DNA from: Escherichia coli
GTDB lineage: Bacteria > Pseudomonadota > Gammaproteobacteria > Enterobacterales > Enterobacteriaceae
NCBI RefSeq assembly: GCF_965641715.1
Contig: NZ_OZ282453.1
Direction: 5' to 3' (one strand)
Length of the DNA stretch: 64,000 nucleotides
The notes under the pieces: model-generated
The model's database searches: none
What the model saw: the letters and a program-made list of their open reading frames with translations, nothing else
Told to the model about the DNA's origin: nothing
Part shown: piece after piece, positions 4,182 to 63,290 of the stretch
How the letters are laid out: each line of letters starts with the position of its first letter
How positions within the stretch are numbered: the stretch's first letter is position 1
Translations under genes and position numbers: made by a program

Positions 4182-4205
4182 TTCTCCTGATTCTGATTTA
4201 TCGCC

Positions 4206-5507: not shown

Positions 5508-5614
5508 GGGGGATCTTAAGCAATCAGAAGCCAATGACTACGCATTTTTATAAGCCGGATCAAGAAGTTAGACGGCAATTAAGTAACACTAACGTTTAAG
5601 GTGAAAAGTGAAAT

Positions 5615-9100: not shown

Positions 9101-9383
9101 TATAGCATATCCCTCTAAGAATTTTTGCGATGCTGCAATATCCGGGGTAAAGACCCGATCCTGGCTGACAAATGGCACGACTTGACGAAAAGCGGTGAAC
9201 ATCGCTTTTGTTGATTTACTTAACGCTACGGTCAAACGCTGGGAAGCCAGTGCATCAGGTAACGATTCGAAATTCGCCGTCGTTCTTATTCGTGGCTTGC
9301 GGTCGGTTGCGGCAATCCACAGTGGCTGTGGTCATGCAGTCAAGCCTGCAGTCAGATTTCGACCGTGGTTAACCGTTTAAGGC

Positions 9384-9484
9384 ATAAAAAAGGCCATCAT
9401 ACGATGGCCAACCATGTCGAAACCGACAGCCCTTCGCCATTCCTGTAGAGGGAAGCGGCGAGGGCTATTTCTTATTACAGATAT
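9384..9484 (-). ncRNA. sdhX: 3'-UTR-derived sRNA SdhX (RybD) with its intrinsic terminator
   Basis: Lies immediately 3' of the sucD stop on the minus strand; terminator hairpin ggccatcgtatgatggcc followed by a U-run, as at the K-12 sucD 3' end. Confidence 0.6.
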
Positions 9485-11559: not shown

Positions 11560-11860
11560 CGTAGACCGAATATTTCGTATCGCTCCCGGGTATTGTCGGT
11601 CACCCGTAGGCCTGATAAGACGTGTAAGCGTCGCATCTGGCATCGCTTGTCGGATGCGGCGCGAGCGCCTTATCCGACCTACATCGGTGCTTCCCGTAGG
11701 CCTGATAAGACGTGTAAGCGTCGCATCAGACATCGCTTGTCGGATGCGGCGCGAGCGCCTTATCCGACCTACATTGGTGGTCCCGTAGGCCTGATAAGAC
11801 GCGTCAGCGTCGCATCAGGCTTCAATTGCCGGAGAAGGCGATAATGCCTTATCCGGTCTA
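11560..11860. repeat. BIME/REP array, three ~95-bp units
   Basis: Three near-identical units containing gcctgataagacg…gcgtcgcatc…cggatgcggcg…ccttatccgacctac palindromes in the sucB-sucC intergenic region. Confidence 0.85.
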
Positions 11861-16094: not shown

Positions 16095-16217
16095 ACGCCT
16101 GATGCGCTGCGCTTATCAGGCCTACGGGTAATGACTTGTAGGCCGGATAAGGCGTTCACGCCGCATCCGGCACTGGTTGCCTGATGCGACGCTTGCGCGT
16201 CTTATCAGGCCTACGGT
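16095..16217. repeat. REP elements in the sdhB-sucA intergenic region
   Basis: gcctgatgcg…cttatcaggcctac and gccggataaggcg…gcatccggc palindromes. Confidence 0.8.
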
Positions 16218-19446: not shown

Positions 19447-20154
19447 GAATAACGCCCACATGCTGTTCTTATTATTCCCTGGGGACTACGGGCACAGAGG
19501 TTAACTTTCTGTTACCTGGAGACGTCGGGATTTCCTTCCTCCGGTCTGCTTGCGGGTCAGACAGCGTCCTTTCTATAACTGCGCGTCATGCAAAACATTG
19601 CTTCCAGATGCGAAAACGACACGTTACAACGCTGGGTGGCTCGGGATTGCAGGGTGTTCCGGAGACCTGGCGGCAGTATAGGCCGTTCACAAAATCATTA
19701 CAATTAACCTACATATAGTTTGTCGGGTTTTATCCTGAACAGTGATCCAGGTCACGATAACAACATTTATTTAATTTTTAATCATCTAATTTGACAATCA
19801 TTCAACAAAGTTGTTACAAACATTACCAGGAAAAGCATATAATGCGTAAAAGTTATGAAGTCGGTATTTCACCTAAGATTAACTTATGTAACAGTGTGGA
19901 AGTATTGACCAATTCATTCGGGACAGTTATTAGTGGTAGACAAGTTTAATAATTCGGATTGCTAAGTACTTGATTCGCCATTTATTCGTCATCAATGGAT
20001 CCTTTACCTGCAAGCGCCCAGAGCTCTGTACCCAGGTTTTCCCCTCTTTCACAGAGCGGCGAGCCAAATAACAAACGGGTAAAGCCAGGTTGATGTGCGA
20101 AGGCAAATTTAAGTTCCGGCAGTCTTACGCAATAAGGCGCTAAGGAGACCTTAA
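19447..20154. promoter_or_regulatory. divergent gltA / sdhCDAB-sucABCD promoter-operator region
   Basis: About 700 bp AT-rich intergenic region between divergently transcribed gltA and sdhC; known in E. coli as a multi-regulator control region. Confidence 0.7.
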
Positions 20155-21438
20155 ATGGCTGATACAAAAGCAAAACTCACCCTCAACGGGGACACAGCTG
20201 TTGAACTGGATGTGCTGAAAGGCACGCTGGGTCAAGATGTTATTGATATCCGTACTCTCGGTTCAAAAGGTGTGTTCACCTTTGACCCAGGCTTCACTTC
20301 AACCGCATCCTGCGAATCTAAAATTACTTTTATTGATGGTGATGAAGGTATTTTGCTGCACCGCGGTTTCCCGATCGATCAGCTGGCGACCGATTCTAAC
20401 TACCTGGAAGTTTGTTACATCCTGCTGAATGGTGAAAAACCGACTCAGGAACAGTATGACGAATTTAAAACTACGGTGACCCGTCATACCATGATCCACG
20501 AGCAGATTACCCGTCTGTTCCACGCTTTCCGTCGCGACTCACATCCAATGGCAGTCATGTGTGGTATTACCGGCGCGCTGGCGGCGTTCTATCACGACTC
20601 GCTGGATGTTAACAATCCTCGTCATCGTGAAATTGCCGCGTTCCGCCTGCTGTCGAAAATGCCGACCATGGCAGCGATGTGTTACAAGTATTCCATTGGT
20701 CAGCCATTTGTTTATCCGCGCAACGATCTCTCCTATGCCGGTAACTTCCTGAATATGATGTTCTCCACGCCGTGCGAACCGTATGAAGTTAATCCGATTC
20801 TGGAACGTGCTATGGACCGTATTCTGATCCTGCACGCTGACCATGAACAGAACGCCTCTACCTCCACCGTGCGTACCGCTGGCTCTTCGGGTGCGAACCC
20901 GTTTGCCTGTATCGCAGCAGGTATTGCTTCACTGTGGGGACCTGCTCACGGTGGTGCTAACGAAGCGGCGCTGAAAATGCTGGAAGAAATTAGCTCCGTT
21001 AAACACATTCCGGAATTTGTTCGTCGTGCGAAAGATAAAAATGATTCTTTCCGCCTGATGGGCTTCGGTCACCGCGTGTACAAAAATTACGACCCGCGCG
21101 CCACCGTAATGCGTGAAACCTGCCATGAAGTTCTGAAAGAGCTGGGCACCAAAGATGACCTGCTGGAAGTGGCTATGGAGCTGGAAAACATCGCGCTGAA
21201 CGACCCGTACTTTATCGAGAAGAAACTGTACCCGAACGTCGATTTCTACTCTGGTATCATCCTGAAAGCGATGGGTATTCCGTCTTCCATGTTCACCGTC
21301 ATCTTCGCTATGGCCCGTACCGTTGGCTGGATCGCTCACTGGAGCGAAATGCACAGTGACGGCATGAAGATCGCCCGTCCGCGCCAGTTGTACACCGGCT
21401 ATGAAAAACGAGACTTTAAATCAGATGTTAAACATTAA
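20155..21438 (+). CDS. gltA: citrate synthase
   Basis: 427 aa, [47 protein letters not shown]…. Confidence 0.97.
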
Positions 21439-21466
21439 TTATCTGATTTGAATCATATATCGTTTA

Positions 21467-21497
21467 GCCCGCCTGAATATCTGGCGGGCTTTTTTTT
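21467..21497 (+). terminator. gltA intrinsic terminator
   Basis: gcccgcc-tgaatatc-tggcgggc hairpin followed by TTTTTTTT. Confidence 0.8.
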
Positions 21498-21824
21498 GTT
21501 CGTTAGTTATGTCTATCGACAAAAAAACGTAATCGGACACAAATACATAATTACACGTTACAAGAATACATATCCGATAACTAAATAAAATCCTAATTTT
21601 TCATTCACCACCACCGTTATCCCGCCAATCGATGTAGAATACATTGGGTAGCACCCACAATTAAATAAACTCGTAATAGGATTAATTCACTTTATTTATG
21701 ATTCGAGAGCTTTGAGAAACTCTCAAACATAATGTAGCAACATTAATATTATTACATGAGCAAAAAACCACTATTCTGTCGGAATAATTAGTATACTTTA
21801 TCATAGCCCATGAAGGATTCATGT

Positions 21825-22391
21825 ATGTTTAAAGGACAAAAAACACTGGCCGCCCTGGCCATATCTCTACTATTCGCTTCACCTGTTTTTGCTGCAGATG
21901 AAGGATCTGGTGAAATCCACTTTAAAGGTGAAGTTATTGAAGCACCTTGTGAAATTCACCCTGATGACCTTGATATGAACATTGACCTGGGTGAAGTAAC
22001 CACATCCCACATAAATCGAGAACATCATAGCGAGAAAAAACCTGTCAATATTCGCTTAATCAACTGTGATATTGCAGGCTGGGATGATGGCAACGGTGGC
22101 GTGGTCTCAAAGGTAGGCGTGACCTTCGACAGCACGGCTAAAACGACAGGTGCAACGCCGCTCCTTAGTAACATCAGTGCTGGCGAGGCTACCGGCGTTG
22201 GCGTACGTCTCATGAACAAAGATGAATCATTTGTTGTATTGGGAACAGAAGCGCCAACAATTGACTTATTGGCAAGTTCAACAGAACAAACGTTAAACTT
22301 CTTTGCCTGGATGGAACAGATGGATAACGCAGTTTCGGTTACCGCGGGGGCCGTTACTGCTAACGCAACTTACGTTCTGGATTACCAATAA
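21825..22391 (+). CDS. ybgD: fimbrial major subunit (chaperone-usher fimbriae)
   Basis: Signal peptide MFKGQKTLAALAISLLFASPVFA; the ORF track starts 5 codons earlier at 21810. Confidence 0.85.
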   Translation: MFKGQKTLAALAISLLFASPVFAADEGSGEIHFKGEVIEAPCEIHPDDLDMNIDLGEVTTSHINREHHSEKKPVNIRLINCDIAGWDDGNGGVVSKVGVTFDSTAKTTGATPLLSNISAGEATGVGVRLMNKDESFVVLGTEAPTIDLLASSTEQTLNFFAWMEQMDNAVSVTAGAVTANATYVLDYQ

Positions 22392-33559: not shown

Positions 33560-33675
33560 GATGCCTGATGCGACGCTTGACGCGTCTTATCAGGCCTACG
33601 TATTTCCTGCAATTTATTGAATTTGCACAAATTTGTAGGCTGGATAAGGCGTTCACGCCGCATCCGGCATCTGGG
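33560..33675. repeat. REP elements between dtpD and phr
   Basis: gcctgatgcgacgcttgacgcgtcttatcaggcctac and ggctggataaggcgttcacgccgcatccggc. Confidence 0.8.
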
Positions 33676-50431: not shown

Positions 50432-51838
50432 TCAGAAGATGGTGAATGGTGCGATTACCATAAATTTCACGTCGCGCTCATCCTGGAAGATGTTACCGTA
50501 ACCGCCACCCCAGCTTGGGATGTCGGAGTGGTTGTCGTATTCGGTGAAGTGCAGTTTGAACATCGTGCCTTTGGCGCGACCGTCCTGAATGGTGTAGACC
50601 GCATCCAGGCTGTATGCAGACTCTTCAATAGTCCGGTTTTTGTCGTAGTACGCATCCGGATTGCTCTGCCAAGTCGCAGGTTTAGCATCCCATGCGTAAA
50701 CGTAGGAAGCGCCGATGGCGAAGCCTGGAAGATTCCAGTTTTTCAGGTCATACATCGCACCGAAGAAGACCGCTTTTTCGCCGTTGGCGTTGAAGTCAGA
50801 ACGGTTATCCCACCAGATATCCAGGCGGCCGTTGGAAGAAGCGTAGGTTGGAGTCATACGTTGCAGGAAGTATCCCTGCTGACCTTCAGCCTTAACCCAG
50901 GTGCCTTCGAGGCGCAAATCCACTACGTCAGCCGCCCGGTAACCAAAGGTCAACGCTTGCAGCCAGGCGGTGCCGTCATAAAGATCGTTGACGCTGCGAT
51001 CGTCAACTTTATCGCGCGTACCGTAGAACTGGTAGCTGGTGGTTAACGGGCTACCGGCGATATCAAATTTGTAGCTGGCTTTGGCAAAGTATTGATCGAT
51101 ATACCCTTCCGCCTGACCAAATGCCGCTTCCAGTACGAAGTTATTTTTGAAGTCGTATTTCGCACCAAGGGAGTGCAGATAATCAACTTTGGTGGTTTTA
51201 TCGTTCTGATAAAACTCATCCATTTCCAGATGCCACGGTGCTTTGTATTCGTTGGTCCACATGTAGGAGAAACTCAACGCACCAGCATCGCCGTAATCAA
51301 AATTCGCTCCGGCTTCCGCACCCTGATAAGTACCCGGCATAAAGCTCCAGTGAGGCGCTAACAGCGTCTGACCGGTTGGCTGAATATAACCTGCCCTCGC
51401 CCAAACCGGACCGTATTTAAATTTGGCCGCAGCTTTATACAGGCTTATACCGCTTTTGTCGCCGGACCAGTCTTCGTCATAGGCTTTATTACTTTTTGAA
51501 AACGCGATTTCGTTCGGGTGAGAGCTGTCGCCGTTTTCCGCCATTTCAATCGCCGTAAACGCAGCAATATCAAGGCCGAACATATCAGCAGCATAACCGG
51601 ACTGAAAATCGAGGTTGGCATTCCAGGTGGAGTGAGAAAGGTTGGTTTTGTATTTGTCGCCGTCGGTAACATCTTTACGGTCGCGTTCACGCTGCCAGTA
51701 ATATATACCGCCGGTTAAGGTTGAATCGTCGATGAATCCTTCGGCGCGAGCCTCCGGCATTGCCATAAAGCCCGACATTGCTGTAACACCGGCGATAGCC
51801 AGCGCCAGCGTACTACGTTTGCCACTAAACGTACGCAT
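50432..51838 (-). CDS. chiP: chitoporin (OprD-family outer-membrane porin)
   Basis: 468 aa with signal peptide, ending in a C-terminal aromatic residue (…APFTIF). Confidence 0.9.
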
Positions 51839-52150
51839 GGGTTAATCCTCTTTGACGTATAAATTGCTGCACCAAAGGTGAACAGCGAAAAAAAATAAAA
51901 ATTAAAAAAGTAGCGTTGAGAAAAGTCTCGCTGACTACAGGAACAGACTATTTTTCGCGACGCGAATTATCAATCTCTTTCTGTAACCAGAATGTAAGAA
52001 CATGAGCAACCGCACATATTTTGATGATTTTTGTTACAAGGCTTAAGTTTGCGGTTGAAAGGCTTGCAGAAGAATAAAAGCGTGAATTTCCAGCAAGATG
52101 AAAGCGGTTACATTTTATTTAATTATGTTTTGTTATTTTAAATTTATTTT
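51839..52150 (-). promoter_or_regulatory. chiPQ promoter and 5' leader
   Basis: AT-rich region upstream of chiP; in E. coli this leader is the known ChiX sRNA / NagC target region. No motif verified here. Confidence 0.4.
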
Positions 52151-52227
52151 ATGGATAAATTGCGAAGCGGAATTAATTCGCGAAGAAAAGCAGAAAAAAC
52201 GCCGCTGAACGCGGCGTTTTGGATTGT

Positions 52228-52412
52228 TTGCATATTTCTTGCCGGATGCGGCGTGAACGCCTTATCCGGCCTACAAAAGCACGCAAACTCAATATATTGC
52301 AGAGATCATGTAGGCCTGATAAGCGTAGCGCATCAGGCAATTTAGCGTTTGAAACTGTTTGTCTGTTCCTTGCCGGATGCGACGTAAACGCCCCATCCGG
52401 CATAGCGAAACT
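52228..52412. repeat. REP/BIME cluster between glnS and chiP
   Basis: Three REP palindromes: gccggatgcggcgtgaacgccttatccggcctac, gtaggcctgataagcgtagcgcatcaggc and gccggatgcgacgtaaacgccccatccggc. Confidence 0.8.
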
Positions 52413-52417
52413 TAAAA

Positions 52418-54082
52418 TTACTCGCCAACTTTCGCCCAGGTATCACGCAGCCCAACGGTGCGGTTAAATACCGGTTTTTCGGCAGTGGAATGGCGGCTAT
52501 CGAGGCAGAAGTAACCTTCACGCTCAAACTGGAATGCTTTACCCGCAACCGCATCTTTCAGCGACGGTTCAGCAAAGCCCTGTTTGATCACCAGCGATTC
52601 CGGGTTAATCACCGACAGGAAATCATCCGCAGCACCAGGGTTCGGCACACTGAACAGACGGTCATACAAACGGATTTCAACCGGCAGCGCATGTGCCGCG
52701 CTCACCCAGTGAATAACACCTTTGACTTTACGACCATCTGCCGGATCTTTACTTAAGGTATCGGCGTCATAAGTACAGAAGATGGTGGTGATATTACCTT
52801 CGGCATCTTTCTCGACGCGTTCTGCCTTAATCACATAAGCATTACGCAGACGCACTTCTTTACCGAGCACCAGACGTTTGTACTGCTTGTTAGCTTCTTC
52901 GCGGAAATCGGCGCGATCGATCCAAATCTCACCGCTAAACGGCACCTGACGGCTCCCCATTTCCGGTTTGTTCGGATGGTTCGGCATGGTGACCATTTCG
53001 CCTTCGCCCTGATAGTTTTCGATAACCAGTTTCACCGGATCGATAACCGCCATTGCGCGCGGCGCATTTTCGTTGAGATCTTCACGGATGCAGGATTCCA
53101 GCGACGCCATCTCAATGGTGTTGTCCTGCTTGGTCACGCCGATGCGTTTGCAGAACTCACGAATAGAAGCCGCAGTGTAACCACGACGACGCAGACCGGA
53201 AATGGTCGGCATTCGCGGGTCATCCCAGCCTTCAACGTGCTTGTCGGTCACCAGCAGGTTCAGCTTACGCTTGGACATCACAGTGTATTCCAGATTCAGG
53301 CGCGAGAATTCGTACTGGCGCGGGTGAACAGGAATGGTGATGTTGTCCAGCACCCAGTCGTACAGGCGACGGTTGTCCTGGAACTCAAGCGTACACAGAG
53401 AGTGCGTAATACCTTCCAGCGCATCGCTGATGCAATGGGTGAAGTCGTACATCGGGTAGATGCACCACTTGTTGCCAGTCTGGTGGTGTTCAGCAAATTT
53501 AATGCGGTACAGCACCGGATCGCGCATTACGATAAATGGCGACGCCATGTCGATTTTCGCACGCAGGCAGGCTTTACCTTCTTCAAAACCGCCGGTACGC
53601 ATTTTCTCGAACAGCGCCAGGTTCTCTTCAACGCTACGGTCGCGGTACGGGCTGTTTTTACCAGGCTGCGTCAGGGTGCCGCGGTATTCGCGGATCTGTT
53701 CCGGCGTCAGTTCATCAACGTACGCCAGGCCTTTATTGATCAGTTCGATCGCATAGGCGTGGAGCTGATCAAAATAATCGGAGGAGTAACGGACGTTACC
53801 AGACCAGTGAAAACCTAACCACTCAACGTCGTTTTTGATCGAATCGACATACTCGATATCTTCTTTTACCGGGTTAGTGTCGTCGAAACGCAGGTTGCAC
53901 TGGCCTTTATAGTCCTGGGCGATCCCGAAGTTCAGGCAGATAGATTTCGCATGGCCAATATGCAGATAGCCATTCGGCTCCGGCGGGAAACGGGTGTGTA
54001 CTGTGGTGTGCTTACCACTGGCCAGATCTTCATCGATGATCTGACGAATAAAGTTAGTCGGGCGGGCTTCTGCCTCACTCAT
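52418..54082 (-). CDS. glnS: glutaminyl-tRNA synthetase
   Basis: 554 aa, [24 protein letters not shown]…; class I HIGH motif (HIGH). Confidence 0.97.
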
Positions 54083-54301
54083 CGTGGATTCCTCAAAGCG
54101 TAAACAACGTATAACGGCGTATGATCTTATAAGCGGGACAGGCTGACAACTGTTAGTTAGCGAAAAAGTGGTTTTGCGTAAGATATTGGGGCGTTTTCTG
54201 CGCTACAGCCAGCAGATCCTCGCGCTGGAGACGTAAGGCCAAACGTCGCCAGCCTGACGCGTTTATTAAATTTCCGGATGAGCTGGCCGCAGAGTCGTAG
54301 A

Positions 54302-55063
54302 TTAATCCGCTATGATTAAACGCGTCGACAAGGACGCCAGCGTTTTGCGCGTCTGCCCATCAAGCTGATTATCCGTAATAATCTCTGTCAGTTCATTAAG
54401 ATGCGCGATATTAAACAGCGACCATGAACCGTATTTTGAGCTGTCAGCCAGGAGAATTTTGCGCGAAGCATGCGCGATAAGATCGCGTTTTAGTGCGGCT
54501 TTCTCTTCCGTGGGTGCTGTAATACCCTTTTCAAGATCCCAGCTGTTACAGCTTAAAAATGCCACGTCCGGCCAGGTATTTTGCAGCATTTTACGACCAT
54601 GTTCGCCAATGCAGGACTGGCTGGAGTCGTCGATACGTCCGCCGATAATCGTCACTTCAATCTGCTTGAATTCAGCCAAAAAAAGCGCGATATGCAGGTC
54701 GCTGGTGATCACGCGAAGCGGTAAATGGGTAATCTGCCGCGCAAGTTCAATCATTGTCGTACCGGCATCAAGGACGACGGAATCCCCCGCTTTGACCATT
54801 GACGCCGCTGCGCTGGCGATGGCATGTTTTTCCGCCAGGCTGCGCTGCATTTTCTCATGGGTAGTCGGTTGGGTAGGAATAAACCGGTTGAGGGTCACAC
54901 CGCCGTGTGTACGGCTGATAACACCCTGCTCATCGAGTTTTATCAGGTCTCGACGAATCGTGGCCGGCGACGCATTGGTTACCGCCACCAGCTCATCAAC
55001 GGTGACCAGATTATGGCTTTTCAGGTAATCCATGATCTGCTCTAACCGGTTATATCCCTTCAT
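54302..55063 (-). CDS. DeoR/GlpR-family transcriptional regulator
   Basis: 253 aa; N-terminal HTH …[21 protein letters not shown]… typical of DeoR; last gene of the minus-strand kinase-dehydrogenase-regulator operon. Confidence 0.85.
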
Positions 55064-55064
55064 T

Positions 55065-56051
55065 TTATTCTCGCGAAATCTGCATTGCTAACTGGATGGA
55101 AACTGCCATGCTCTCAGACTTGGCTTTTCCTGTCCAGGCAATATCAAATGCGGTGCCGTGGTCGGCAGAAGTACGAATAAATGGCAACCCGGCGGTGATA
55201 TTCACCCCATCATAAAATCCAAGCAGTTTTAAAGGGATATGCCCCTGATCGTGGTACATAGCCACCACCATATCGAATAGCCCTTCATGGCACTGCATGA
55301 ACACGGTATCTGGCGGGCACGGGCCAGTAACATCAATATCTTCGGCCTGCATTGCTTCAATCGCAGGTGCGATAATCTCGATTTCCTCAGTGCCGAATAA
55401 ACCGTGTTCCCCTGCATGTGGATTTACACCCGCCACGGCAATACGCGGACGCTCAATACCGACACGTTTCAGGAAGTGGTTCGCAACTCGAATAACCGTT
55501 TTGACCCTTTCACCGTTCAATGTATCCAGGAATTTACGCAGTGAGATGTGAGTCGAAATATGGATAACCTTGAGCTTATCGGTATAGAGCACCATCGCGT
55601 ACTCTTTGCTGCCGGTAAGATGGGCCAGCAATTCCGTATGGCCAGGATAGTTATGCCCGCCAAGATGCAGCGCTTCTTTATTCAACGGCGCAGTGGCTAT
55701 GGCTTTCACCTCGCCTGATAAGGCCAGGGCCGTTGCACGTTTGATACAGCGATACGCTAAATCGCCTGCCGCAGCCTGTACCACTCCGGGTGTCAGCGCA
55801 TCGGGGTTAGCCAGCGGCTCATCCATCACGTTAATCACGCCGGGAGCAAAGTGGGCGTCGCACACCTTTTGAATGACGCGTAACTCTGTCTGCGGCGTGA
55901 TATTCATCGCCATAATACGTCGTAACGTGCGCACACAGCCCACCACCACCACCGGGGCACCAGCAAGCCCGGCTTCGCTCAGGGATTTAATAATGATCTC
56001 CGGGCCAATACCCGCCGGATCGCCCATCGTTACCGCAATAATATTATTCAC
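55065..56051 (-). CDS. PdxA-family NAD-dependent dehydrogenase (PdxA2-like)
   Basis: 328 aa with a PdxA-type N-terminus (…[14 protein letters not shown]…); adjacent to a DUF1537 kinase. Confidence 0.8.
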
Positions 56052-57282
56052 TACGCTTCTCCTCGATAAAATTCAGAACCTGATGCAACGTGGTCTCATC
56101 GCCAAACCCACCGGCTTTCGTCATCACCGAACGGGACCAGACGCCGCCCAGAAAGTGACCGTATGGAACGCACTGCGCCACCTTCCCCGTAATACGAAAC
56201 CCGGTCGCACCTAACGCACTGGCTGTTGCCATTGCGACATCGCCACCAGAGAGATAAAGGGCATCAGGGGTGACACGAAGCAGAACTTGCCGGGTAAGTT
56301 CGCCAAGAAACCGGCAAATTTTTTCCCCAAGCGCAGCGCGACTCATCTGCCAACGCTGGCAAAGGGTGTCGATATGGTGCCTTGCTTCAGAATCGGTACA
56401 GGTGTGGACAATGCAGTGGTCCCCTTTCTGTAAGGCCTGCACAATACGCGCGTCATAGCCCCTGGCGTTGCCTGCCAGAATGTGTTCAACATCGACGTAT
56501 ATCTGTGTGATACGTGAGTGTGAATGCAGTGTGGCGATCTGCCGTTGAGCGATTTCGCTCATTGAACCAATAATGGCCAGCACGGTGGGTGGCGGCATAA
56601 TCGCCGAGCGCCGGGCAACGGCATCACAAATACCAGCGGAGCCGACCAGCAGCAGCGGTTGTTTAGCCTGCATCACAGCGGCAGCGATGCAATCCAGGTC
56701 GCTGTCCGTCTGCGCATCCATCACCCCAATCCACGGTTGCTCACGAGACAAATGGCTGAGCTCAGAAACTGTAACGGGCTGGCATGGAATGGCCGTCTGC
56801 AACCGAATGATGTCCGCAATTCGTGCGCTCATTACCGGGGTTTTTGGATCGCTGGCAAACTCGGTTTCCGTTAGCCGCACGCCGTTTACCCGACACTCAC
56901 CGTCCACCGTGGTCCTTCCCACCTGGGGAAATGCGGGGGCAACCACTGCGCCCGTTATGCCGCATGCCTGCATCAGGGCTTCAATTTCTGCGCCGATATT
57001 CCCTCGCAGCGTGGAATCTATCTTTTTAATCATGAGCGGCGGGTTATTCGCCAGAGGGAGATGACTCATCAGCGAGGTCATTTTCATCGCGGCCTGCTTA
57101 GGATCCATCGCCCGACTGTCGCTATTAATCACCCATACGCTTGCATCACCGTGATAAGGCGTTGCAAAGGCCACATCAACCGTATGTCCCACCTGCGCCA
57201 GGCTTACTCCTGCGTCGTTGGCCCCTGTGAAATCATCGGCAACGACGAGAATGCTCGGCTTAGTGATTCCCTTTTCCATCAT
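56044..57282 (-). CDS. four-carbon acid-sugar kinase family protein (DUF1537; DtnK/OtnK/DenK-like)
   Basis: N-terminal …ILVVADDFTGANDAG… motif; start ambiguous (57282, 57279 or 57321); overlaps the PdxA-family gene by 8 nt. Confidence 0.75.
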   Translation of the reverse strand: MMEKGITKPSILVVADDFTGANDAGVSLAQVGHTVDVAFATPYHGDASVWVINSDSRAMDPKQAAMKMTSLMSHLPLANNPPLMIKKIDSTLRGNIGAEIEALMQACGITGAVVAPAFPQVGRTTVDGECRVNGVRLTETEFASDPKTPVMSARIADIIRLQTAIPCQPVTVSELSHLSREQPWIGVMDAQTDSDLDCIAAAVMQAKQPLLLVGSAGICDAVARRSAIMPPPTVLAIIGSMSEIAQRQIATLHSHSRITQIYVDVEHILAGNARGYDARIVQALQKGDHCIVHTCTDSEARHHIDTLCQRWQMSRAALGEKICRFLGELTRQVLLRVTPDALYLSGGDVAMATASALGATGFRITGKVAQCVPYGHFLGGVWSRSVMTKAGGFGDETTLHQVLNFIEEKRSE

Positions 57283-57299
57283 CACTCCAGGTTGTTTTA

Positions 57300-57448
57300 T
57301 GATGACAATGATTATATTCAATCACGATTGATTAAATGTGAGCAAGTTCAAGTTATTAATCACTCGAATAAATTATAAAATTAGGCCATGTTACGTAGAC
57401 AACGGTATTTTGAATGATTGATTTCAATCACGAGAAGAGAGGTTATTT
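57300..57448. promoter_or_regulatory. divergent promoter/operator region with repeated TTCAATCACGA motifs
   Basis: Motif at 57318-57328 and 57423-57433, each next to a gattgatt half-site; lies between the divergent kinase and alcohol-dehydrogenase operons. Confidence 0.45.
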
Positions 57449-58606
57449 GTGGTAATTATCAATAGCACGATACTGAGCGGCGCAGGCGCTATCCCTTCCC
57501 TGACGTCGCTCTTACCCGGCGTCAGAAAATTGCTGCTGGTCACAGACAGCAATATTGCGCAGCTTAACGGAGTGCAGCAGATTCGCGCCTTACTGGAAAA
57601 GCACTGCCCGCAGGTGAGCGTTATCGATAATGTGCCTGCAGAGCCTACGCATCATGATGTGCGCCAGCAAATGGCGACCCTCGGCAACGCGTCGTTTGAT
57701 GTAGTAGTGGGCGTCGGCGGCGGCAGCGTGCTGGATGTCGCAAAACTGTTGTCGGTGCTTTGTCACCCCGATTCACCGGGGCTGGATGCGCTGCTTGCCG
57801 GTGAAAAACCGACGCAGCGGGTGCAATCATGGTTGATTCCTACAACCGCCGGTACCGGCTCAGAAGCCACGCCAAATGCGATTCTGGCGATCCCTGAACA
57901 AAGCACGAAGGTGGGTATTATTTCTCCGGTGCTGCTACCGGATTATGTGGCACTTTTCCCCGAGCTGACCACCAGCATGCCCGCACATATTGCAGCGTCT
58001 ACGGGCATTGATGCGCTTTGTCACTTACTGGAGTGTTTTACCGCGACCGTGGCAAATCCGGTCAGCGATAACGCGGCGCTAACCGGGTTAAGTAAGCTTT
58101 TCCGGCATATTCAACCCGCCGTGAACGATCCTCAGGATCTGCGCGCAAAACTGGAAATGCTGTGGGCGTCTTACTATGGCGGCGTAGCGATAACCCATGC
58201 GGGCACGCACCTGGTCCATGCGCTCTCCTACCCGTTAGGCGGCAAATATCACCTGCCGCACGGTGTGGCGAATGCCATCTTGCTGGCACCGTGCATGGCG
58301 GTTGTTCGCCCCTGGGCGGTCGAGAAATTTGCCCAGGTCTGGGATTGCATTCCCGATGCGGATACATCCTTGAGCGCGGAAGAGAAATCTCACGCTCTGG
58401 TGGCCTGGCTACAGGCATTAGTCAATCAACTCAAGCTGCCCAACAATCTCGCGGATCTTGGCGTACCGCCAGATGATATTACGTCTCTTAGCGCGGCGGC
58501 ACTGAACGTGAAGCGCCTGATGAACAATTCCCCCTGCCAACTGAATCAGCGGGACGTGCAGGCCATTTACCAAACGCTGTTTCCGCAACATCAATTTAAG
58601 GAGTAA
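57449..58606 (+). CDS. iron-containing (group III) alcohol dehydrogenase family oxidoreductase
   Basis: 385 aa with GTG start and upstream RBS gagaagagagg; GGGSVLD nucleotide-binding motif. Confidence 0.8.
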   Translation: MVIINSTILSGAGAIPSLTSLLPGVRKLLLVTDSNIAQLNGVQQIRALLEKHCPQVSVIDNVPAEPTHHDVRQQMATLGNASFDVVVGVGGGSVLDVAKLLSVLCHPDSPGLDALLAGEKPTQRVQSWLIPTTAGTGSEATPNAILAIPEQSTKVGIISPVLLPDYVALFPELTTSMPAHIAASTGIDALCHLLECFTATVANPVSDNAALTGLSKLFRHIQPAVNDPQDLRAKLEMLWASYYGGVAITHAGTHLVHALSYPLGGKYHLPHGVANAILLAPCMAVVRPWAVEKFAQVWDCIPDADTSLSAEEKSHALVAWLQALVNQLKLPNNLADLGVPPDDITSLSAAALNVKRLMNNSPCQLNQRDVQAIYQTLFPQHQFKE

Positions 58607-58609
58607 ATC

Positions 58610-59497
58610 ATGCCAAAAACCATTGAAGGTGTATTAACCGCCATCGTCACCCCGTTTACCGCGACCGGCGTCCTGAATCTCCCGGCGTTAAAAGTGCAGG
58701 TTAATCGCCAACTGGAAGCCGGTAACGCGATTTTTTGCGGCGGCACCAACGGCGAGTTTTTTGTGTTGAACGAACAGGAGAAGCTCAGCGTTACGCAAAC
58801 CTGCGTGGATGAAGTGGCTGGCCGCGCACCGGTCGTGGCGCACATTGGTGAGATCTCGACGCGCGAAACCATTCGTCTGGGTCAGCAGATTGAAAAACTG
58901 GGCGTTGATGCGGTATCGGTCATTACCCCGTACTTTGTACCGCTAAAACAGGAAGAGCTGATTGCCCATTACACCGCAATTGCCGACGCACTAAGCATTC
59001 CCATGTTTCTCTATAACATCCCGGCCCGCACCGGCAATACGATTCAGCCGGAAACCGCGCGCGCTCTGGCGTCGCATCCCAATATCATTGGGATTAAAGA
59101 CAGCGCCGGAAGCTACGAAAGCCTGAAGGGTTTTCTCGATGCTGTGCGCAACATTGACGGCTTTAATGTGCTCAACGGCCCGGATTCGCTGATCCATAAA
59201 GGGTTTGTCGAGGGGTGTTCAGCCTGTATTTCCGGGCTCGCCAACGTCGCGCCGCGAGAAATCAATGCCATCTGGTCTCGCTTCCATGCCGGTGATATTG
59301 AAGGATCGTATCAGGCACAGGAGAGTGTGACTGGCCTGCGTACCGATCTTTATAAAGTAGCATTCTCCCCAGCTGCGGTGAAAAAAGCGTTGCAGCTTAT
59401 GGGGCATGATGTTGGTGATAGCCGCTACGCGGTTAATTTCACGCCTGAACAGATCAGCGAGATTCAACAAATTATTCGTCATTATCACATTAATTAA
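58610..59497 (+). CDS. DapA/NanA-family class I aldolase (dihydrodipicolinate synthase-like lyase)
   Basis: 295 aa with GTNGE motif, a Tyr in ITPYF and a Schiff-base Lys candidate in IIGIKDS (Lys163); 3 nt after the dehydrogenase gene. Confidence 0.8.
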   Translation: MPKTIEGVLTAIVTPFTATGVLNLPALKVQVNRQLEAGNAIFCGGTNGEFFVLNEQEKLSVTQTCVDEVAGRAPVVAHIGEISTRETIRLGQQIEKLGVDAVSVITPYFVPLKQEELIAHYTAIADALSIPMFLYNIPARTGNTIQPETARALASHPNIIGIKDSAGSYESLKGFLDAVRNIDGFNVLNGPDSLIHKGFVEGCSACISGLANVAPREINAIWSRFHAGDIEGSYQAQESVTGLRTDLYKVAFSPAAVKKALQLMGHDVGDSRYAVNFTPEQISEIQQIIRHYHIN

Positions 59498-59556
59498 ATT
59501 AACTCTATTATCCAGCCCGCTATAACGTATAGATAAAGAGAATAAAGGATTACCCC

Positions 59557-60315
59557 ATGTTTTTGTGGTTTATGCAGCCAGATATCTGGCTCACTTTAAT
59601 TACCCTCACCTTTCTGGAAATTATTCTCGGGGTGGATAATATTATTTTTCTTTCACTGGTGGTGGCAAAACTTCCGTTATCACAACAAAATATGGCGCGT
59701 AAACTGGGTTTAAGCTGCGCGATGATTATGCGGATATTATTGCTGATATCCATTGCGTGGCTTTCACATATTACCCAGCCGCTTTTTACCGTGCTGGCGC
59801 TGGAGATTTCGTTCCGCACGTTGATTCTACTCGGGGGCGGGCTGTTCCTGATTTATAAAGCGATACAGGAGATACGCGAAGAGTTGTCGCCCGCGCAGGA
59901 AGACGCGCATGGCAGCGGGTCGCGGCAGCTGTCGCTGTGCGGTGCTATCGTACAGATAATGCTGCTGGATATTGTGTTCAGCCTGGACTCGGTGATCACC
60001 GCCGTCGGCCTTTCTCAGCATATATTTATTATGATTGCTGCCGTCATGATTGCCGTTGGCATCATGATGTTTGCGGCGAAAACCATTGGTGACTTCGTGA
60101 ACGCGACGCCATCGATAAAAATACTGGCGTTAACCTTTTTATTATTTGTCGGCGTATTGTTGGTTGCCGATAGCCTCAATATTCATATTGCCAAAGAGTA
60201 TCTCTACTTCGCGATATTTTTCTCATTAAGCGTGGAGACACTCAATATTTTCCGTGAAAGAAGACATAAAAAAGTTTCGACATCGATCGAAACGCATGAA
60301 TCGAACTCGCATTAA
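59557..60315 (+). CDS. TerC-family integral membrane protein
   Basis: 252 aa polytopic protein with a TerC-like …LEIILGVDNIIFLSLV… motif. Confidence 0.7.
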   Translation: MFLWFMQPDIWLTLITLTFLEIILGVDNIIFLSLVVAKLPLSQQNMARKLGLSCAMIMRILLLISIAWLSHITQPLFTVLALEISFRTLILLGGGLFLIYKAIQEIREELSPAQEDAHGSGSRQLSLCGAIVQIMLLDIVFSLDSVITAVGLSQHIFIMIAAVMIAVGIMMFAAKTIGDFVNATPSIKILALTFLLFVGVLLVADSLNIHIAKEYLYFAIFFSLSVETLNIFRERRHKKVSTSIETHESNSH

Positions 60316-60350
60316 TAAATCTATTACCGACTTTAAGATGGAGTCTAACT

Positions 60351-61520
60351 ATGTCTGTAGCTCTTATTCGTGACGGCGTCATCCGTCCGTCCGAAAATGA
60401 TTCGCATGTGCTTACCGCCATGCTGCCCTCGTCCTGCCCGCAAAACCACGCGGCGAATATTCTGCCTTTGCCGGATGGCGCGTTAATGTGCGTCTGGTTT
60501 GCGGGAACGCAGGAAGGTATTGCCGATATTTCCGTCTGGGGATCGCGGCTGCCCGCTGGCGGAACGCAGTGGAGCGATGCGGTCAAACTGTCCCACGATG
60601 ACACGCGTTCAGAGCAGAACCCGGTACTGTTTCTCGCACCGGATAACGTGCTGTGGCTGCTATGGACCGCACAAATATCCGGTAATCAGGACACCGCCAT
60701 CGTCCGCTACCGTAAGTCAGACGACCTCGGACAAACCTGGGGCGAGATTGCCACGCTGCTCGATAAACCCGGCACGTTCATTCGCCAGCCGATCACGGTG
60801 CTTGATAACGGCAACTGGCTGCTGCCCGTCTTTTATTGCCGTACCCAACCCGGTGAAAAATGGGTCGGCAATGATGATATCAGCGCAGTGAAAATTTCCG
60901 CTGACGGTGGTCACTCATGGCGCGATGTCGAGGTGCCGCAAAGTCTCGGCTGCGTTCATATGAATATCACAATGCTGCACGACGGTACGTTGGCTGCTCT
61001 CTTTCGCAGCCGTTGGGCAGACAACATCTATATCAGCCATTCTGCGGACCACGGCGAGAGCTGGTCGGTGCCGCAAGCAACCGAACTGCCCAACAACAAT
61101 TCGTCTATTCAGGTGACGACGCTTGCCAGCGGTGAGCTGGCGCTGGTGTACAACGCAATGAGTGCGGCAGGCGCAGTAGAACGTCGCGCGTCGCTGTATG
61201 ACGAAATCGACGATGGCGACGACAGTCGCAAAGAACCCACAGCCGTTGGACGCTCCGCTTTCTGGGGTGCCCCGCGCGCGCCGATGACGGTAGCGATTTC
61301 TGCCGATGGCGGGAAAAGCTGGCCGTGGCGGCGCAATCTCGATGAAGGCGATGGCTACTGCATGACCAACAATTCGCTGGAAAAGCTAAATCGCGAGTTC
61401 TCCTACCTCAGTATCAAACAAAGCCCGGACGGTACGCTGCATATCGCTTACACCTGGTGGCGTCAGGCCATCAAGTACGTGCGCATCTCCCCCGAGTGGG
61501 TTAAGGGGCAGGCATTATGA
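60351..61520 (+). CDS. BNR/Asp-box repeat protein, sialidase-superfamily beta-propeller, predicted cytoplasmic
   Basis: Four Asp-boxes: SDDLGQTW (60717-60740), SADGGHSW (60897-60920), SADHGESW (61041-61064), SADGGKSW (61299-61322); N-terminal IRP resembles the sialidase RIP motif; no signal peptide apparent. Confidence 0.75.
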   Translation: MSVALIRDGVIRPSENDSHVLTAMLPSSCPQNHAANILPLPDGALMCVWFAGTQEGIADISVWGSRLPAGGTQWSDAVKLSHDDTRSEQNPVLFLAPDNVLWLLWTAQISGNQDTAIVRYRKSDDLGQTWGEIATLLDKPGTFIRQPITVLDNGNWLLPVFYCRTQPGEKWVGNDDISAVKISADGGHSWRDVEVPQSLGCVHMNITMLHDGTLAALFRSRWADNIYISHSADHGESWSVPQATELPNNNSSIQVTTLASGELALVYNAMSAAGAVERRASLYDEIDDGDDSRKEPTAVGRSAFWGAPRAPMTVAISADGGKSWPWRRNLDEGDGYCMTNNSLEKLNREFSYLSIKQSPDGTLHIAYTWWRQAIKYVRISPEWVKGQAL

Positions 61521-61987
61521 TTATCGGGAATCTCAACCATTTGTCACAGGCGGGGCTTCCCGCTGGCGTGAAAAATATTCTGCTGCGCCCGGAATGTTCG
61601 TTACGGGCGTTATCCGCCAGAGAGGACGGTCGCTGGCAACTGGAAGGATGCCGGTGGTTCTGCACGCTGGGCCTTTCAGACACGCAGCCCGCCGATCTCC
61701 GGCATACGGAGTATCACCATCTGTGGGCCGATATTCAGGTGGTGATTGCCGGTTGTGAGGGCATTAATGCGGGGACGCGGCCCGTAGCGCAGGAAAGCGA
61801 TGAAGAACGTAAGCCCGATCTGTTTATCGCCCCATCCCCTGAAAACAGTGTCGCAATCACCTTACACCCCGGTGATTTCGCCGTCTTTATGCCAGAAGAA
61901 CCCCATCAGGCGCTGTGCGCGGTTGGCGCGGCCACGTCAGTACGTAAAGCGGTCTTTAAGGTACCGCGCGACATGCTGGAAGCCTAA
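61517..61987 (+). CDS. YhcH/YjgK/YiaL-family (DUF386) protein, putative ulosonic-acid anomerase
   Basis: 156 aa resembling E. coli YhcH (…GDFAVFMPEEPH… versus YhcH …GMFAVFMPGEPH…); overlaps the upstream gene by 4 nt. Confidence 0.75.
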   Translation: MIIGNLNHLSQAGLPAGVKNILLRPECSLRALSAREDGRWQLEGCRWFCTLGLSDTQPADLRHTEYHHLWADIQVVIAGCEGINAGTRPVAQESDEERKPDLFIAPSPENSVAITLHPGDFAVFMPEEPHQALCAVGAATSVRKAVFKVPRDMLEA

Positions 61988-62000
61988 AAGGAGAGAAAAA

Positions 62001-63281
62001 ATGACAATGGAAATGATCCTGGCATTAGGAATACTGGTCCTGATGATCGTGCTGATCATGTCGGACAAAATGCCCTTTGGCGCACCGCCACTGCTTGCGT
62101 GTTTATTGCTGGTTGTCTCGGGGCTGTCGACGGTTCAACAGGCTTTTGCCGGATTCGTCAATCCAAGCGTGGTGATGATTGCAGGGTTTATGGTGGTGAT
62201 GGCTGCGCTACAAAAAACCCGGCTTATCAGCAACGTTAAATCTGCGATGATAAGCCTGGTCAATAAAGGCAGTTACCGCAGTTATGGGCTGTTGTTAGTC
62301 ATCGTTATGCTGGGCGCCAGTCTTGCCGGCACCGGCGCGACGGGTTATTACGTGCTGATTCTGTCTCTGGTATCCACCATTCCGTACAGTAAAAAGCTAC
62401 CAACATCGAAATTGATGATGCCACTGGGATTTGCCACCAACCATCCGCTTCTTCCTATCAATCTCGCGCTTCTCTTTGGCGTCACGGCGACCGTACTCGA
62501 AACAGCCGGTTTTCATCAGGAGATTTCGATGGGGCGCTTTGCGCTGGTGAATCTCGTCATGTCAGCGGCTTTTCTGGCGTGGAGTCTGATTGCCTACCGT
62601 TTTCTTCCGGATCATCCCATTGCGGATGCTTCCGAGGATGCGCTGGCCGCACGCGAAGAAACGTTTAACGCCCTTCCTGCCTGGAAAGAGTATTGCACCA
62701 TCGCCGCATTCGCCGTCAGCGTTATCGGCATGATGCTGATGAATATGCTGGGTAATATCGCCTTCGTTATTCCAGGCCTTGCGGGTGCGTTTGTTCTGAT
62801 GATCGATGTACTGGACTTTAAAGAAGTTCGCGATCATATGGGGGCACCGGTCATTTTAATGATGGCGGGGGTGATCGGTGTGGCTGATGCGCTGGCTGGC
62901 ACCGGCTTTACGGCAATGGTAGGCGATGCCGTTGCAGGTGTGCTCGGGTCTGGCGTCTCACCGTTTGTATTTATTGTCGCCTTTGCTTTACTTACCAGTA
63001 CCTGCGCCACCTTCACGGGTTCGAATATGGGGTCAGTCTATATTTTTGCCCCCATCGCCATTGCCGCCTGTACTAGCCTTGGGCTTAACCCGACCGCTGC
63101 CGCGATTGCGGTGGTGATTTCTGGCTGGAATGGCGGCTATATGCCTATTGACGGAATGCCAGCCATGATCCTCGGAATGGGGAAATACAAACTTCCCGAA
63201 TTCTGGGTGTTCTCTGTACCAATGTATCTCATCCGCATTCTGGCGCTTTGTGCAGGCGCTGTTTTTATCTTCCCAATGTAA
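62001..63281 (+). CDS. ion-transporter superfamily permease (DASS/CitMHS/ArsB-like), putative organic anion transporter
   Basis: 426 aa polytopic membrane protein; start taken at the ATG 7 nt after the aaggaga RBS (MTMEMILALGIL…), not the ORF-track start at 61800 which overlaps the upstream gene. Confidence 0.7.
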   Translation: MTMEMILALGILVLMIVLIMSDKMPFGAPPLLACLLLVVSGLSTVQQAFAGFVNPSVVMIAGFMVVMAALQKTRLISNVKSAMISLVNKGSYRSYGLLLVIVMLGASLAGTGATGYYVLILSLVSTIPYSKKLPTSKLMMPLGFATNHPLLPINLALLFGVTATVLETAGFHQEISMGRFALVNLVMSAAFLAWSLIAYRFLPDHPIADASEDALAAREETFNALPAWKEYCTIAAFAVSVIGMMLMNMLGNIAFVIPGLAGAFVLMIDVLDFKEVRDHMGAPVILMMAGVIGVADALAGTGFTAMVGDAVAGVLGSGVSPFVFIVAFALLTSTCATFTGSNMGSVYIFAPIAIAACTSLGLNPTAAAIAVVISGWNGGYMPIDGMPAMILGMGKYKLPEFWVFSVPMYLIRILALCAGAVFIFPM

Positions 63282-63290
63282 TCTCAGACA

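Follow-up and report, generated by a model that had tools for sequence, protein, structure and literature searches.

We analyzed a 64,000-nucleotide stretch of Escherichia coli DNA (contig NZ_OZ282453.1 of assembly GCF_965641715.1; hereafter the window) that carries, in the glnS/nagE interval, a 9.1-kb accessory island (54159..63286) absent from E. coli K-12. The island holds nine genes in two divergent operons. On the minus strand lie genes for a four-carbon acid-sugar kinase of the DUF1537 family, a PdxA2 dehydrogenase, and a DeoR-family regulator; on the plus strand lie genes for an iron-containing alcohol dehydrogenase (Fe-ADH), a DapA-like aldolase, a TerC-family membrane protein, a sialidase-fold protein, a YhcH homologue, and an anion permease. 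The DeoR-PdxA2-DtnK operon is the lower half of this single catabolic island, which is putatively DeoR-controlled. What is new here is the other half, an undescribed upper pathway that would feed a known terminal module and for which a specific substrate can be predicted.

The lower operon

The predicted D-threonate kinase, DtnK, is encoded at 56044..57279 on the minus strand (NF047819, Pfam, and the structure 4XFM support the assignment). It is followed on the same strand by the gene for PdxA2 (55065..56051; NF002891), a 328-aa protein with a GTG start that is predicted to be a D-threonate-4-phosphate dehydrogenase, decarboxylating to dihydroxyacetone phosphate (DHAP) and CO2, and by the last gene of the operon, for a 253-aa DeoR/GlpR-family regulator (54302..55063) with full-length AgaR, YgbI, and GlpR matches. 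The close packing noted in the preliminary description of this DNA was borne out. The kinase and PdxA genes overlap by 8 nt, with the PdxA2 GTG at 56051 and the kinase TAA ending at 56044 (junction ...CGTAGTGAATAA); stop and start share GTGAATAA, and a GAGGAG Shine-Dalgarno sequence lies upstream. DeoR begins 1 nt after PdxA2 (TAA ending at 55065, one base, ATG at 55063). That description also set the end of the unit at 57321. The longest DUF1537 open reading frame (ORF; 56044-57321) does reach a TTG there, but the likely kinase start is 57279 (411 aa), because the RefSeq orthologue is 1236 nt long and, of two ATGs, the second has a GGAG five bases upstream.

The kinase has a complete C-terminal nucleotide-binding domain (Pfam NBD_C at residues 234-398, model positions 1-168 of 168, 1e-30), as the interpretation in the preliminary description requires, and with the N-terminal domain (SBD_N, residues 10-220, 4e-54) its two-domain architecture is complete; a truncated kinase is ruled out by these two domains. 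The protein aligned to its last residue with a crystallised Pectobacterium DUF1537 protein, PDB 4XFM (E 2e-91), which was the closest of the solved relatives (4XFR, 1e-29; 3DQQ, 5DMH, and 1YZY, 1e-12 to 1e-15). It scored 532 bits on NF047819, 'D-threonate kinase, gamma' (DtnK-gamma; cut-off 450), and fell below the cut-offs for sister specificities, at 109 against 350 on the model for OtnK (3-oxo-tetronate kinase) and 30 against 700 on that for OiaK. A comparison with the DtnK, DenK, and OtnK types, which had been suggested at the outset, places the kinase closest to the DtnK-type structure 4XFM; the functional labels of 4XFM, 4XFR, 3DQQ, 5DMH, and 1YZY are those that Zhang et al. 2016 reportedly assigned, and the PDB itself says 'uncharacterized'. 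A Pectobacterium cluster of the same type (L032) encodes a kinase ~94% identical to the 4XFM protein.

The neighboring PdxA homologue is PdxA2 and not the housekeeping PdxA, which likewise favors the interpretation in the preliminary description. It scored 681 bits on NF002891, 'D-threonate 4-phosphate dehydrogenase' (cut-off 583), and matched 6E85, a PDB entry of the same name, at 4e-173 and Salmonella PdxA2 (2HI1) at 2e-166, compared with 4e-56 for E. coli PdxA (1PS6). It passed the broad TIGR00557 pdxA model (370 against 290) and was below cut-off on all of the housekeeping subfamily models NF002992, NF003699, NF002744, NF002520, and NF003040. A housekeeping identity is ruled out by these NCBIfam scores and PDB E-values. 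The DeoR protein matched the AgaR, YgbI, GlpR, and SrlR models of NCBIfam end to end (1e-41 to 1e-51), none at its equivalog cut-off, and an orthologue 81% identical to it contains Pfam HTH_DeoR and DeoRC.

The kinase and PdxA2 very probably convert a four-carbon (C4) acid sugar to DHAP, and at the level that computation allows, the lower module appears to be a member of the known DtnK/PdxA2 D-threonate pathway. The pair by itself is ordinary and already named by RefSeq. Salmonella has the same two enzymes in its D-threonate module (STM0162/STM0163), and those of the island are both above equivalog cut-offs; the likeness extends to a translationally coupled gene pair, a DeoR-type regulator, and DHAP as the predicted product. 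Zhang and colleagues are said to have found the Salmonella module paired with a tetronate transporter, taking up external D-threonate. In the island, the partners of the two enzymes are instead an aldolase, an Fe-ADH, a sialidase-fold protein, and a YhcH homologue, all predicted to take part in generating the tetronate intracellularly.

The upper operon and the divergent promoter region

The aldolase/dehydrogenase operon that had been described as divergently paired with the kinase operon is real and comprises six plus-strand genes (57449-63281). Beyond what was first noticed, it also encodes a sialidase-fold protein, a homologue of the YhcH anomerase, TerC, and a citrate-type permease. Its first gene (57449..58606) specifies the Fe-ADH, the predicted reductase of a C4 aldehyde-acid to D-threonate, which can be assigned at family level. 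NCBIfam matches to ErcA, lactaldehyde reductase, and 4-hydroxybutyrate dehydrogenase (E ~1e-63) were all below cut-off, and PDB matches were to lactaldehyde reductase and propanediol and methanol dehydrogenases (~1e-45). By these comparisons, the protein appears nearest to the aldehyde-reducing members of the family, namely lactaldehyde reductase, 4-hydroxybutyrate dehydrogenase, and propanediol dehydrogenase.

The second gene (58610..59497, plus strand) encodes a class I aldolase of the DHDPS/NAL family that is DapA-like without being DapA, scoring 189.6 bits on TIGR00674 (dapA), below the cut-off of 206.15, and 114 against 382 on the NanA model. As expected of a class I aldolase with a TIM barrel and a Tyr/Thr proton relay, the Schiff-base Lys163, together with Tyr135 and Thr46, is invariant in 61/61 sequences. 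A subfamily signature was also apparent, with T45N and Y107F each in 57/61 sequences. Across residues 4-256 the protein could be aligned with Staphylococcus aureus DHDPS, and this PDB alignment shows the same motifs as the E. coli DapA reference sequence. Arg140, within the motif YNIPART, is present in 55 of the 61 sequences and is equivalent to DapA Arg138, the residue that contacts the carboxylate group of aspartate semialdehyde, a 4-oxo acid of four carbons. Retention of this residue argues for a carboxylated aldehyde as the aldolase product.

The sialidase-fold protein (60351..61520, plus strand; family BNR_2) is 389 aa long and cytoplasmic, with no signal peptide visible by eye, and is predicted to be a ketosidase or ring-processing enzyme for a 2-keto-3-deoxy acid sugar. 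It has the six-bladed beta-propeller with Asp-box (BNR) repeats. In an hhalign alignment with human NEU2, R21 fell on His33 (motif QNHA), R237 on Arg219, the catalytic D46 on Asp59, and E218 on Cys201/His203. A profile alignment to Amuc_1547-type sialidases placed Arg309 on the region of the third arginine, so that two of the three triad arginines are kept. Tyr352, in an E-x-S-Y motif invariant in our narrow alignment of the family (A2), aligns near the C-terminal nucleophile region of sialidases. The protein is thus sialidase-like, with an active site that does not appear to be canonical GH33, and we do not class it as a sialidase because His33 replaces the first arginine and Cys201/His203 align with the glutamate.

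Of the other three plus-strand genes, that for the YhcH/YjgK/YiaL (DUF386) protein, a homologue of the sialic-acid anomerase NanQ (61517..61987), overlaps the upstream gene by 4 nt; its product scored 97 bits on TIGR00022 (cut-off 45.5) and 94 against 160 on the NanQ model NF040884. The last gene (62001..63281) encodes a CitMHS/DASS (SLC13-like) anion permease, the predicted substrate importer (Pfam CitMHS 1.6e-21, Na_sulph_symp 1.3e-12), which RefSeq names 'SLC13 family permease'. The TerC-family membrane protein (59557..60315) gave weak YkoY/YjbE matches and has an orthologue with Pfam TerC.

Between the two operons lies a 169-bp divergent promoter/operator region (57280..57448) in which a 21-nt repeat occurs twice (57307-57327 and 57413-57433), each time enclosing one TGATT-N6-AATCA palindrome (57309-57324 and 57415-57430; spacing 106 nt). 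The palindrome TGATTATATTCAATCA, or a version with other central bases, was present in 40/40 spacers between divergent kinase and Fe-ADH genes from Enterobacterales, Tolumonas, and Gilliamella, and most of these spacers had a second copy ~105 nt away. We read this footprint, kept in every one of the divergent spacers, as a putative shared operator, the best explanation being that the cluster's DeoR protein acts there and would control both operons. Scans for sigma-70 promoters and terminators gave hits no commoner than in shuffled sequence, and no known RNA or riboswitch, such as a Mn riboswitch ahead of TerC, was found in the island at Rfam gathering thresholds.

Distribution of the gene set

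We scanned one genome per species with the sialidase-like (BNR) protein as probe, using alignment A2, and found the gene in at least 592 bacterial species; it occurred on plasmids or megaplasmids in Rhizobium, Sinorhizobium, Pantoea, Ralstonia, Agrobacterium, and Azospirillum. Genes per cluster were then counted in 88 fetched loci. A five-gene core emerged, consisting of the DUF1537 kinase, PdxA2, the Fe-ADH, the DapA-like aldolase, and the cytoplasmic sialidase-fold protein, and the full core was present in most of the best 80 loci examined. It extends across Alpha-, Beta-, and Gammaproteobacteria and Firmicutes, including E. coli, Klebsiella, Yersinia, Pantoea, Pectobacterium, Dickeya, Gilliamella, Vibrio, Ralstonia, Rhizobium, Sinorhizobium, Agrobacterium, Azospirillum, Bacillus, and Paenibacillus. 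The sialidase-like ORF was counted in 82/88 loci, Fe-ADH in 62, PdxA2 in 60, and the DHDPS-like aldolase and the kinase in 59 each, with the kinase and PdxA2 genes paired in ~59. Less constant were an SSS transporter (55/88), a small short-chain dehydrogenase/reductase (SDR) of about 225 aa (53/88), YhcH (48/88), DeoR (45/88), an SLC13-type permease (7/88), and TerC (5/88). Since the same gene set recurs in dozens of species, the arrangement is not due to chance.

Around this core, the regulators vary among clusters (DeoR, GntR/FadR, and sigma-54 activators), and the transporter slot varies by species, being filled by SSS, CitMHS/SLC13, TRAP-TAXI, MFS acid-sugar (ACS family), Opp-type ABC, or Nramp-like proteins. 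In Firmicutes, Azospirillum, and Ralstonia, the genes form a single co-directional string. Within the Ralstonia solanacearum cluster, kinase and PdxA are fused in one 766-aa protein (L003 5115-7415), both halves of which were confirmed by hidden Markov models (HMMs), and a 755-aa ORF (L087 4074-6341) suggests such a fusion in Methylobacterium too.

The SDR accompanied 44 of the 55 SSS-type clusters (loci L001-L089) and was absent from 7/7 SLC13-permease loci (Klebsiella/Kluyvera/Enterobacteriaceae, Actinobacillus, and Paenibacillus), and neither the window nor L001 has it. In the PDB and NCBIfam, the SDR gave generic, FabG-like matches. Stand-alone trios of SSS, sialidase-like, and SDR genes, with no kinase, PdxA2, aldolase, or ADH gene nearby, were seen at L031, L033, L034, L065, L051, L058, and L075. 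Those of Pantoea and Enterobacter cancerogenus adjoin genes for a tartrate dehydrogenase (574 bits, cut-off 470) and a TtdR-like LysR regulator.

Two metal-transporter families were seen in the transporter slot. TerC (59557-60315 in the window; E. coli, Klebsiella, and Kluyvera) always occurred with an SLC13/CitMHS permease and is restricted to the Enterobacteriaceae variant of the cluster; an Nramp-like protein occurred in Lysinibacillus and a Bacillota metagenome-assembled genome (L054 8618-9970; L071 36-1346). Possibly the acid enters the cell complexed to a metal. One might speculate that such a complex comes in through the CitMHS-type permease and that its metal is then exported by TerC, a scheme with which the Lysinibacillus Nramp-like protein agrees. 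The island permease (62001-63281) shares 76% protein identity with the permease of the Paenibacillus ginsengihumi cluster (L078 11337-12623), compared with 31-49% for other cluster proteins, which suggests that the transporter gene was recently exchanged horizontally between Firmicutes and Enterobacteriaceae.

Plant pathogens, rhizobia, endophytes, and pectinolytic members of Bacillus and Paenibacillus make up most of the carriers; others are gut symbionts of pollen or leaf feeders, such as Gilliamella (bee gut) and Lonepinella. Pantoea, Erwinia mallotivora, and members of the Bacillus pumilus group, three lineages unrelated to one another, have GH28 alpha-galacturonidase/polygalacturonase-like genes adjoining the module (L033 4698-6107, L034 2973-4304, L039 12505-13893, L064 1428-2819, and L074 1375-2766), a hint of a link to pectin.

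Within E. coli, the flanks of the island are those of the species, with chiP-glnS (50432-54082) 99.0% identical and window 1-25000 (suc, sdh, and neighbors) 99.4% identical. Genes nagE and glnS are adjacent in K-12, whose spacer matches the window to 54158 and again from 63287, and relative to this empty site, ~43 bp have been cleanly replaced by the island. The ORF and annotation tables list no integrase or tRNA gene at the island ends, where no dedicated flanking-repeat or tRNA scan was run. Among complete E. coli genomes, 1047/5426 (~19%) carry the island at ≥80% coverage. It corresponds to 'GR 6 nagE..glnS', placed among the 'uncharacterized features' of compared extraintestinal pathogenic E. 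coli (ExPEC) strains and the adherent-invasive E. coli (AIEC) strain LF82, and carriage has been reported in B2-group ExPEC and AIEC strains, CFT073 being another carrier listed (PMC12928451). The same 2026 comparison reads the kinase/PdxA2 pair as related to pyridoxal phosphate (PLP) and notes a similar cluster in Sinorhizobium meliloti, citing Thiaville et al. 2016.

The island core of the window (56044-61520) is just 94.1-94.7% identical to the islands of all 1047 carrier genomes, compared with 99.0-99.4% in the flanks, and the strain therefore holds a diverged island allele at the same glnS/nagE site, which may have arisen by separate acquisition or old recombination. Elsewhere in the window, Rfam matches above the gathering score were three naRNA4 (nucleoid-associated RNA derived from REP elements; 11609-11679 and 11699-11769, minus strand; 16141-16211, plus strand) and one ES036/CssrF small RNA (33592-33634, minus strand). 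Segments 4001-6000, 8001-10000, and 20001-22000 have a GC content of 0.45-0.46 against a background of ~0.52-0.54; in this part of the window, the corresponding E. coli annotation includes a fimbrial usher and an AtuA-family protein, and the segments may represent further accessory DNA.

A predicted pathway, its alternatives, and its meaning

The preliminary description suggested that the four-carbon acid is produced inside the cell from a larger substrate. Our results support this because synteny of the genes for the kinase, PdxA2, the Fe-ADH, the aldolase, and the sialidase-like protein extends across phyla, because both divergent operons share a conserved putative operator, and because kinase-PdxA fusions occur within the clusters; no dedicated tetronate transporter was identified. 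The C4 acid is probably produced by aldol cleavage of a larger keto-deoxy acid. Gene identities (at family or equivalog level), synteny, and the conserved palindrome of the putative operator are observed; we infer each reaction of the upper operon, the direction of the ADH, and the substrate.

In the scheme we propose, the citrate-type permease would import an anionic, sialic-acid-like 2-keto-3-deoxy sugar acid, which the sialidase-fold protein and the YhcH homologue would free from a ketoside or bring into the open-chain keto form. The DapA-like Schiff-base aldolase would cleave it to pyruvate and a C4 4-oxo acid, D-threo-tetruronate ('tartrate semialdehyde'), which the Fe-ADH would reduce to D-threonate with NAD(P)H. 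DtnK would then form 4-phospho-D-threonate, and PdxA2 would oxidize and decarboxylate this to DHAP and CO2. Overall, a C7 diacid would yield pyruvate, DHAP, and CO2 in a redox-neutral manner, the NAD(P)H spent by the ADH being matched by the NADH made by PdxA2. We are modestly inclined toward this combined mechanism, from keto-deoxy sugar acid through pyruvate and a C4 acid to DHAP, with 3-deoxy-D-lyxo-hept-2-ulosaric acid (Dha) as the leading candidate substrate.

Dha was reached by working backward. If D-threonate arises through the Fe-ADH, its precursor would be the corresponding 4-oxo acid, and if a class I pyruvate aldolase releases that C4 4-oxo acid, its substrate would be a 3-deoxy-hept-2-ulosaric acid. 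Dha is a sugar of side chain D of pectic rhamnogalacturonan-II (RG-II), in the arrangement L-Araf-beta1,5-D-Dha-beta-2,3-GalA. We analyzed its stereochemistry by hand using Fischer projections and Cahn-Ingold-Prelog rules. In the D-lyxo configuration, C4 is left, C5 left, and C6 right, and C3-C4 cleavage followed by reduction gives (2S,3R)-2,3,4-trihydroxybutanoate, which is D-threonate. The fit is good because the kinase and PdxA2 models specify this same isomer. D-Threonate is also the configurational analogue of the PdxA substrate 4-phosphohydroxy-L-threonine. The aldolase is nearest to true DapA, whose adduct, 4-hydroxy-2-oxo-6-aminoheptanedioate, may be compared with Dha as 4,5,6-trihydroxy-2-oxoheptanedioate. 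All transporter types seen appear to be carboxylate or anion carriers (CitMHS/DASS, SSS, TRAP, and MFS-ACS), which would fit an acid substrate, and the plant-associated, pectin-degrading, and herbivore- or bee-gut taxa, with their GH28 neighbors, are a circumstantial fit to Dha. Kdo, KDN, and Neu5Ac are ruled out as substrates by carbon count, as they would give C5 or C6 aldoses, and hexarates because they would give the C3 compound tartronate semialdehyde. We tentatively propose Dha from RG-II, free or as a small ketoside, as the substrate, while recognizing that the balance of probability is somewhat against it.

Known systems offer partial precedents. Sialic acid (nan) catabolism shares the logic and families of the upper steps, with import of an ulosonic acid, ring opening or anomerization, and Schiff-base aldol cleavage to pyruvate. 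The island differs in that its lyase is DapA-like with an arginine for a carboxylated aldehyde, its sialidase-like protein is cytoplasmic with His for the first triad arginine, its proposed aldehyde product is a C4 acid and not a hexosamine, and it has no equivalents of NanK, NanE, or NagA. DapA and the C7-diacid aldolase of the homoprotocatechuate route (which gives succinate semialdehyde) have in common with the proposed route an aldol reaction whose partners are pyruvate and a C4 4-oxo acid and which gives a 4-hydroxy-2-oxoheptanedioate skeleton, and the action of 4-hydroxybutyrate dehydrogenase on succinate semialdehyde resembles the proposed follow-up reduction. The island aldolase retains the Lys, Tyr, Thr, and Arg138 equivalent of DapA but lies below its cut-off, belongs to the T45N and Y107F subfamily, and is predicted to act in the cleavage direction on a trihydroxylated substrate. 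Carter and colleagues reportedly described D-apiose catabolic pathways that use DUF1537 kinases. These are a precedent for a route from a rare RG-II sugar that ends in a DUF1537 kinase and decarboxylation to a triose phosphate; they differ in substrates and enzymes (3-oxo-isoapionate kinase, RuBisCO-like decarboxylases), and the island kinase scores only 30 bits on OiaK. Bacteroides thetaiotaomicron BT1020, the GH143 Dha hydrolase (Ndeh et al. 2017; PDB 5MQS), is a periplasmic glycosidase of a polysaccharide utilization locus with no Dha catabolism, and the island BNR_2 protein resembles GH33 more closely in structure than GH143, its gene being part of a cluster for monomer catabolism.

Several points weigh against the Dha pathway. 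Family-level homology cannot fix substrates, and the enzyme activities of the upper operon are predictions. Dha is a minor sugar, with one residue per RG-II side chain D. The sialidase-fold protein lacks the complete GH33 arginine triad with its RIP motif, having His33 in place of the first arginine, and a Glu partner for its Tyr is not evident. It is also cytoplasmic, yet the transporters appear for the most part to carry monomers; a small ketoside, or else a lactone, anhydro, or glycal form, may be what it acts on. The SDR of most non-E. coli clusters is superfluous to the model, and TerC has no role in it. The SSS-BNR-SDR trio is also found where the lower pathway is missing, at times next to a tartrate dehydrogenase, and the tartrate formed from Dha would be the unusual D-(-)-tartrate. 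Finally, the E. coli kinase is just ~40% identical to the characterised Salmonella DtnK (PMC12928451).

Among the alternatives, another 2-keto-3-deoxy acid sugar handled by the same architecture is unlikely but the most probable. Examples would be a 3-deoxy-heptulosonate, from which a tetrose would be released, a heptulosarate stereoisomer, and an ulosonic acid of bacterial or algal origin; the C4 intermediate could be D-erythronate or, in some species, tartrate. Dha was, after all, reached solely by retrosynthesis, and the SDR in 53 of the 82 fetched loci with a sialidase-like ORF suggests chemistry beyond the Dha model, as do a 2-hydroxyacid dehydrogenase and MFS-ACS transporter in Erwinia and Bacillota and the tartrate dehydrogenase adjoining the module in Pantoea. 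A monoacid heptulosonate, however, would yield a neutral tetrose requiring an aldehyde dehydrogenase, and the E. coli island has none; the conserved DapA-type Arg140 argues for a carboxylated aldehyde, and PdxA2 and the kinase pass D-threonate-specific cut-offs. To our knowledge, Dha is the sole common natural 3-deoxy-heptulosaric acid. Plain use of D-threonate or D-erythronate is distinctly unlikely. Here, the tetronate would be imported as such, for example by the citrate-type permease, and the aldolase, ADH, and sialidase-like genes would be mere neighbors with another function. HMM scores do match the kinase, PdxA2, and DeoR trio to the Salmonella D-threonate module, the island has an anion permease, and Zhang and colleagues reportedly found that the Salmonella module needs no aldolase. 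Mere adjacency is difficult to reconcile with the aldolase, Fe-ADH, and sialidase-like genes traveling with the kinase and PdxA2 in ~60 of the 88 loci while transporters and regulators are swapped, with the one conserved operator between both operons, or with the single co-directional string of Firmicutes, Azospirillum, and Ralstonia.

A second system for sialic acid, Kdo, or KDN, built from a sialidase, a NanA-like lyase, and a NanQ-like anomerase and unrelated to the C4 module, is very improbable, despite the sialidase fold, the NanQ homologue, and the NAL-family lyase. Also in its favor, Ghalambor and Heath reportedly described an Enterobacter that grew on Kdo by means of a Kdo aldolase, the gene for which is not known to have been identified. 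Cleavage of Neu5Ac, KDN, and Kdo would yield N-acetylmannosamine, mannose, and arabinose, for which no matching kinase, epimerase, or deacetylase is present; the aldolase is below NanA cut-offs (114 against 382) and closer to DapA, and the linkage to the kinase and PdxA2 would be left unexplained. We give least credence of all to vitamin B6 salvage or detoxification, in which the kinase would phosphorylate toxic 4-hydroxy-L-threonine and PdxA2 would stand in for PdxA. E. coli has its own pdxA and pdxB, and Thiaville and colleagues, whose study is invoked for this role, are themselves said to consider acid-sugar catabolism primary. The island, moreover, is accessory (19% of genomes), controlled by a sugar-type regulator, and embedded in a catabolic cluster. 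In favor of a B6 role, the E. coli pair has been so interpreted (PMC12928451), and reviews citing Thiaville et al. 2016 credit the DUF1537 kinase STM0162 with phosphorylating 4-hydroxy-L-threonine and PdxA2 with catalyzing the PdxA reaction; a later paper from the same group instead assigns PdxA2 to organic-acid catabolism rather than PLP synthesis (PMC9997740).

Full-text literature searches returned no catabolic pathway for Dha, and no paper within reach of the searches describes the entire cluster beyond the ExPEC island listing. A 2026 RG-II preprint lists pathways for secreted D-Kdo, 2-O-methyl-L-fucose, and a methyl-xylosyl-fucose disaccharide as unconfirmed in other gut microbes. The value of the present analysis lies in gene context, in that an uncharacterised five-gene core leads to a retrosynthesis that is specific and stereochemically consistent. 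It is possible, and we offer it as a tentative proposal, that the island is the first catabolic pathway for Dha, in which the sialidase-fold enzyme and the DapA-derived aldolase would feed D-threo-tetruronate via the Fe-ADH into DtnK/PdxA2. If so, functions would follow for the sialidase-fold family COG4692/BNR_2, which has no known substrate, and for the subfamilies of DapA-like aldolases and Fe-ADHs found here, a natural source of bacterial D-threonate would be shown, and a missing step in the mineralization of pectin (RG-II) would be filled. It would also become clear why plant pathogens, rhizobia, endophytes, and bee-gut Gilliamella have all come to carry the cluster. An island listed as uncharacterised in an ExPEC/AIEC comparison (PMC12928451) would gain a nutritional rationale, and ~19% of E. 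coli could cross-feed in the gut on Dha released by Bacteroides from dietary pectin.

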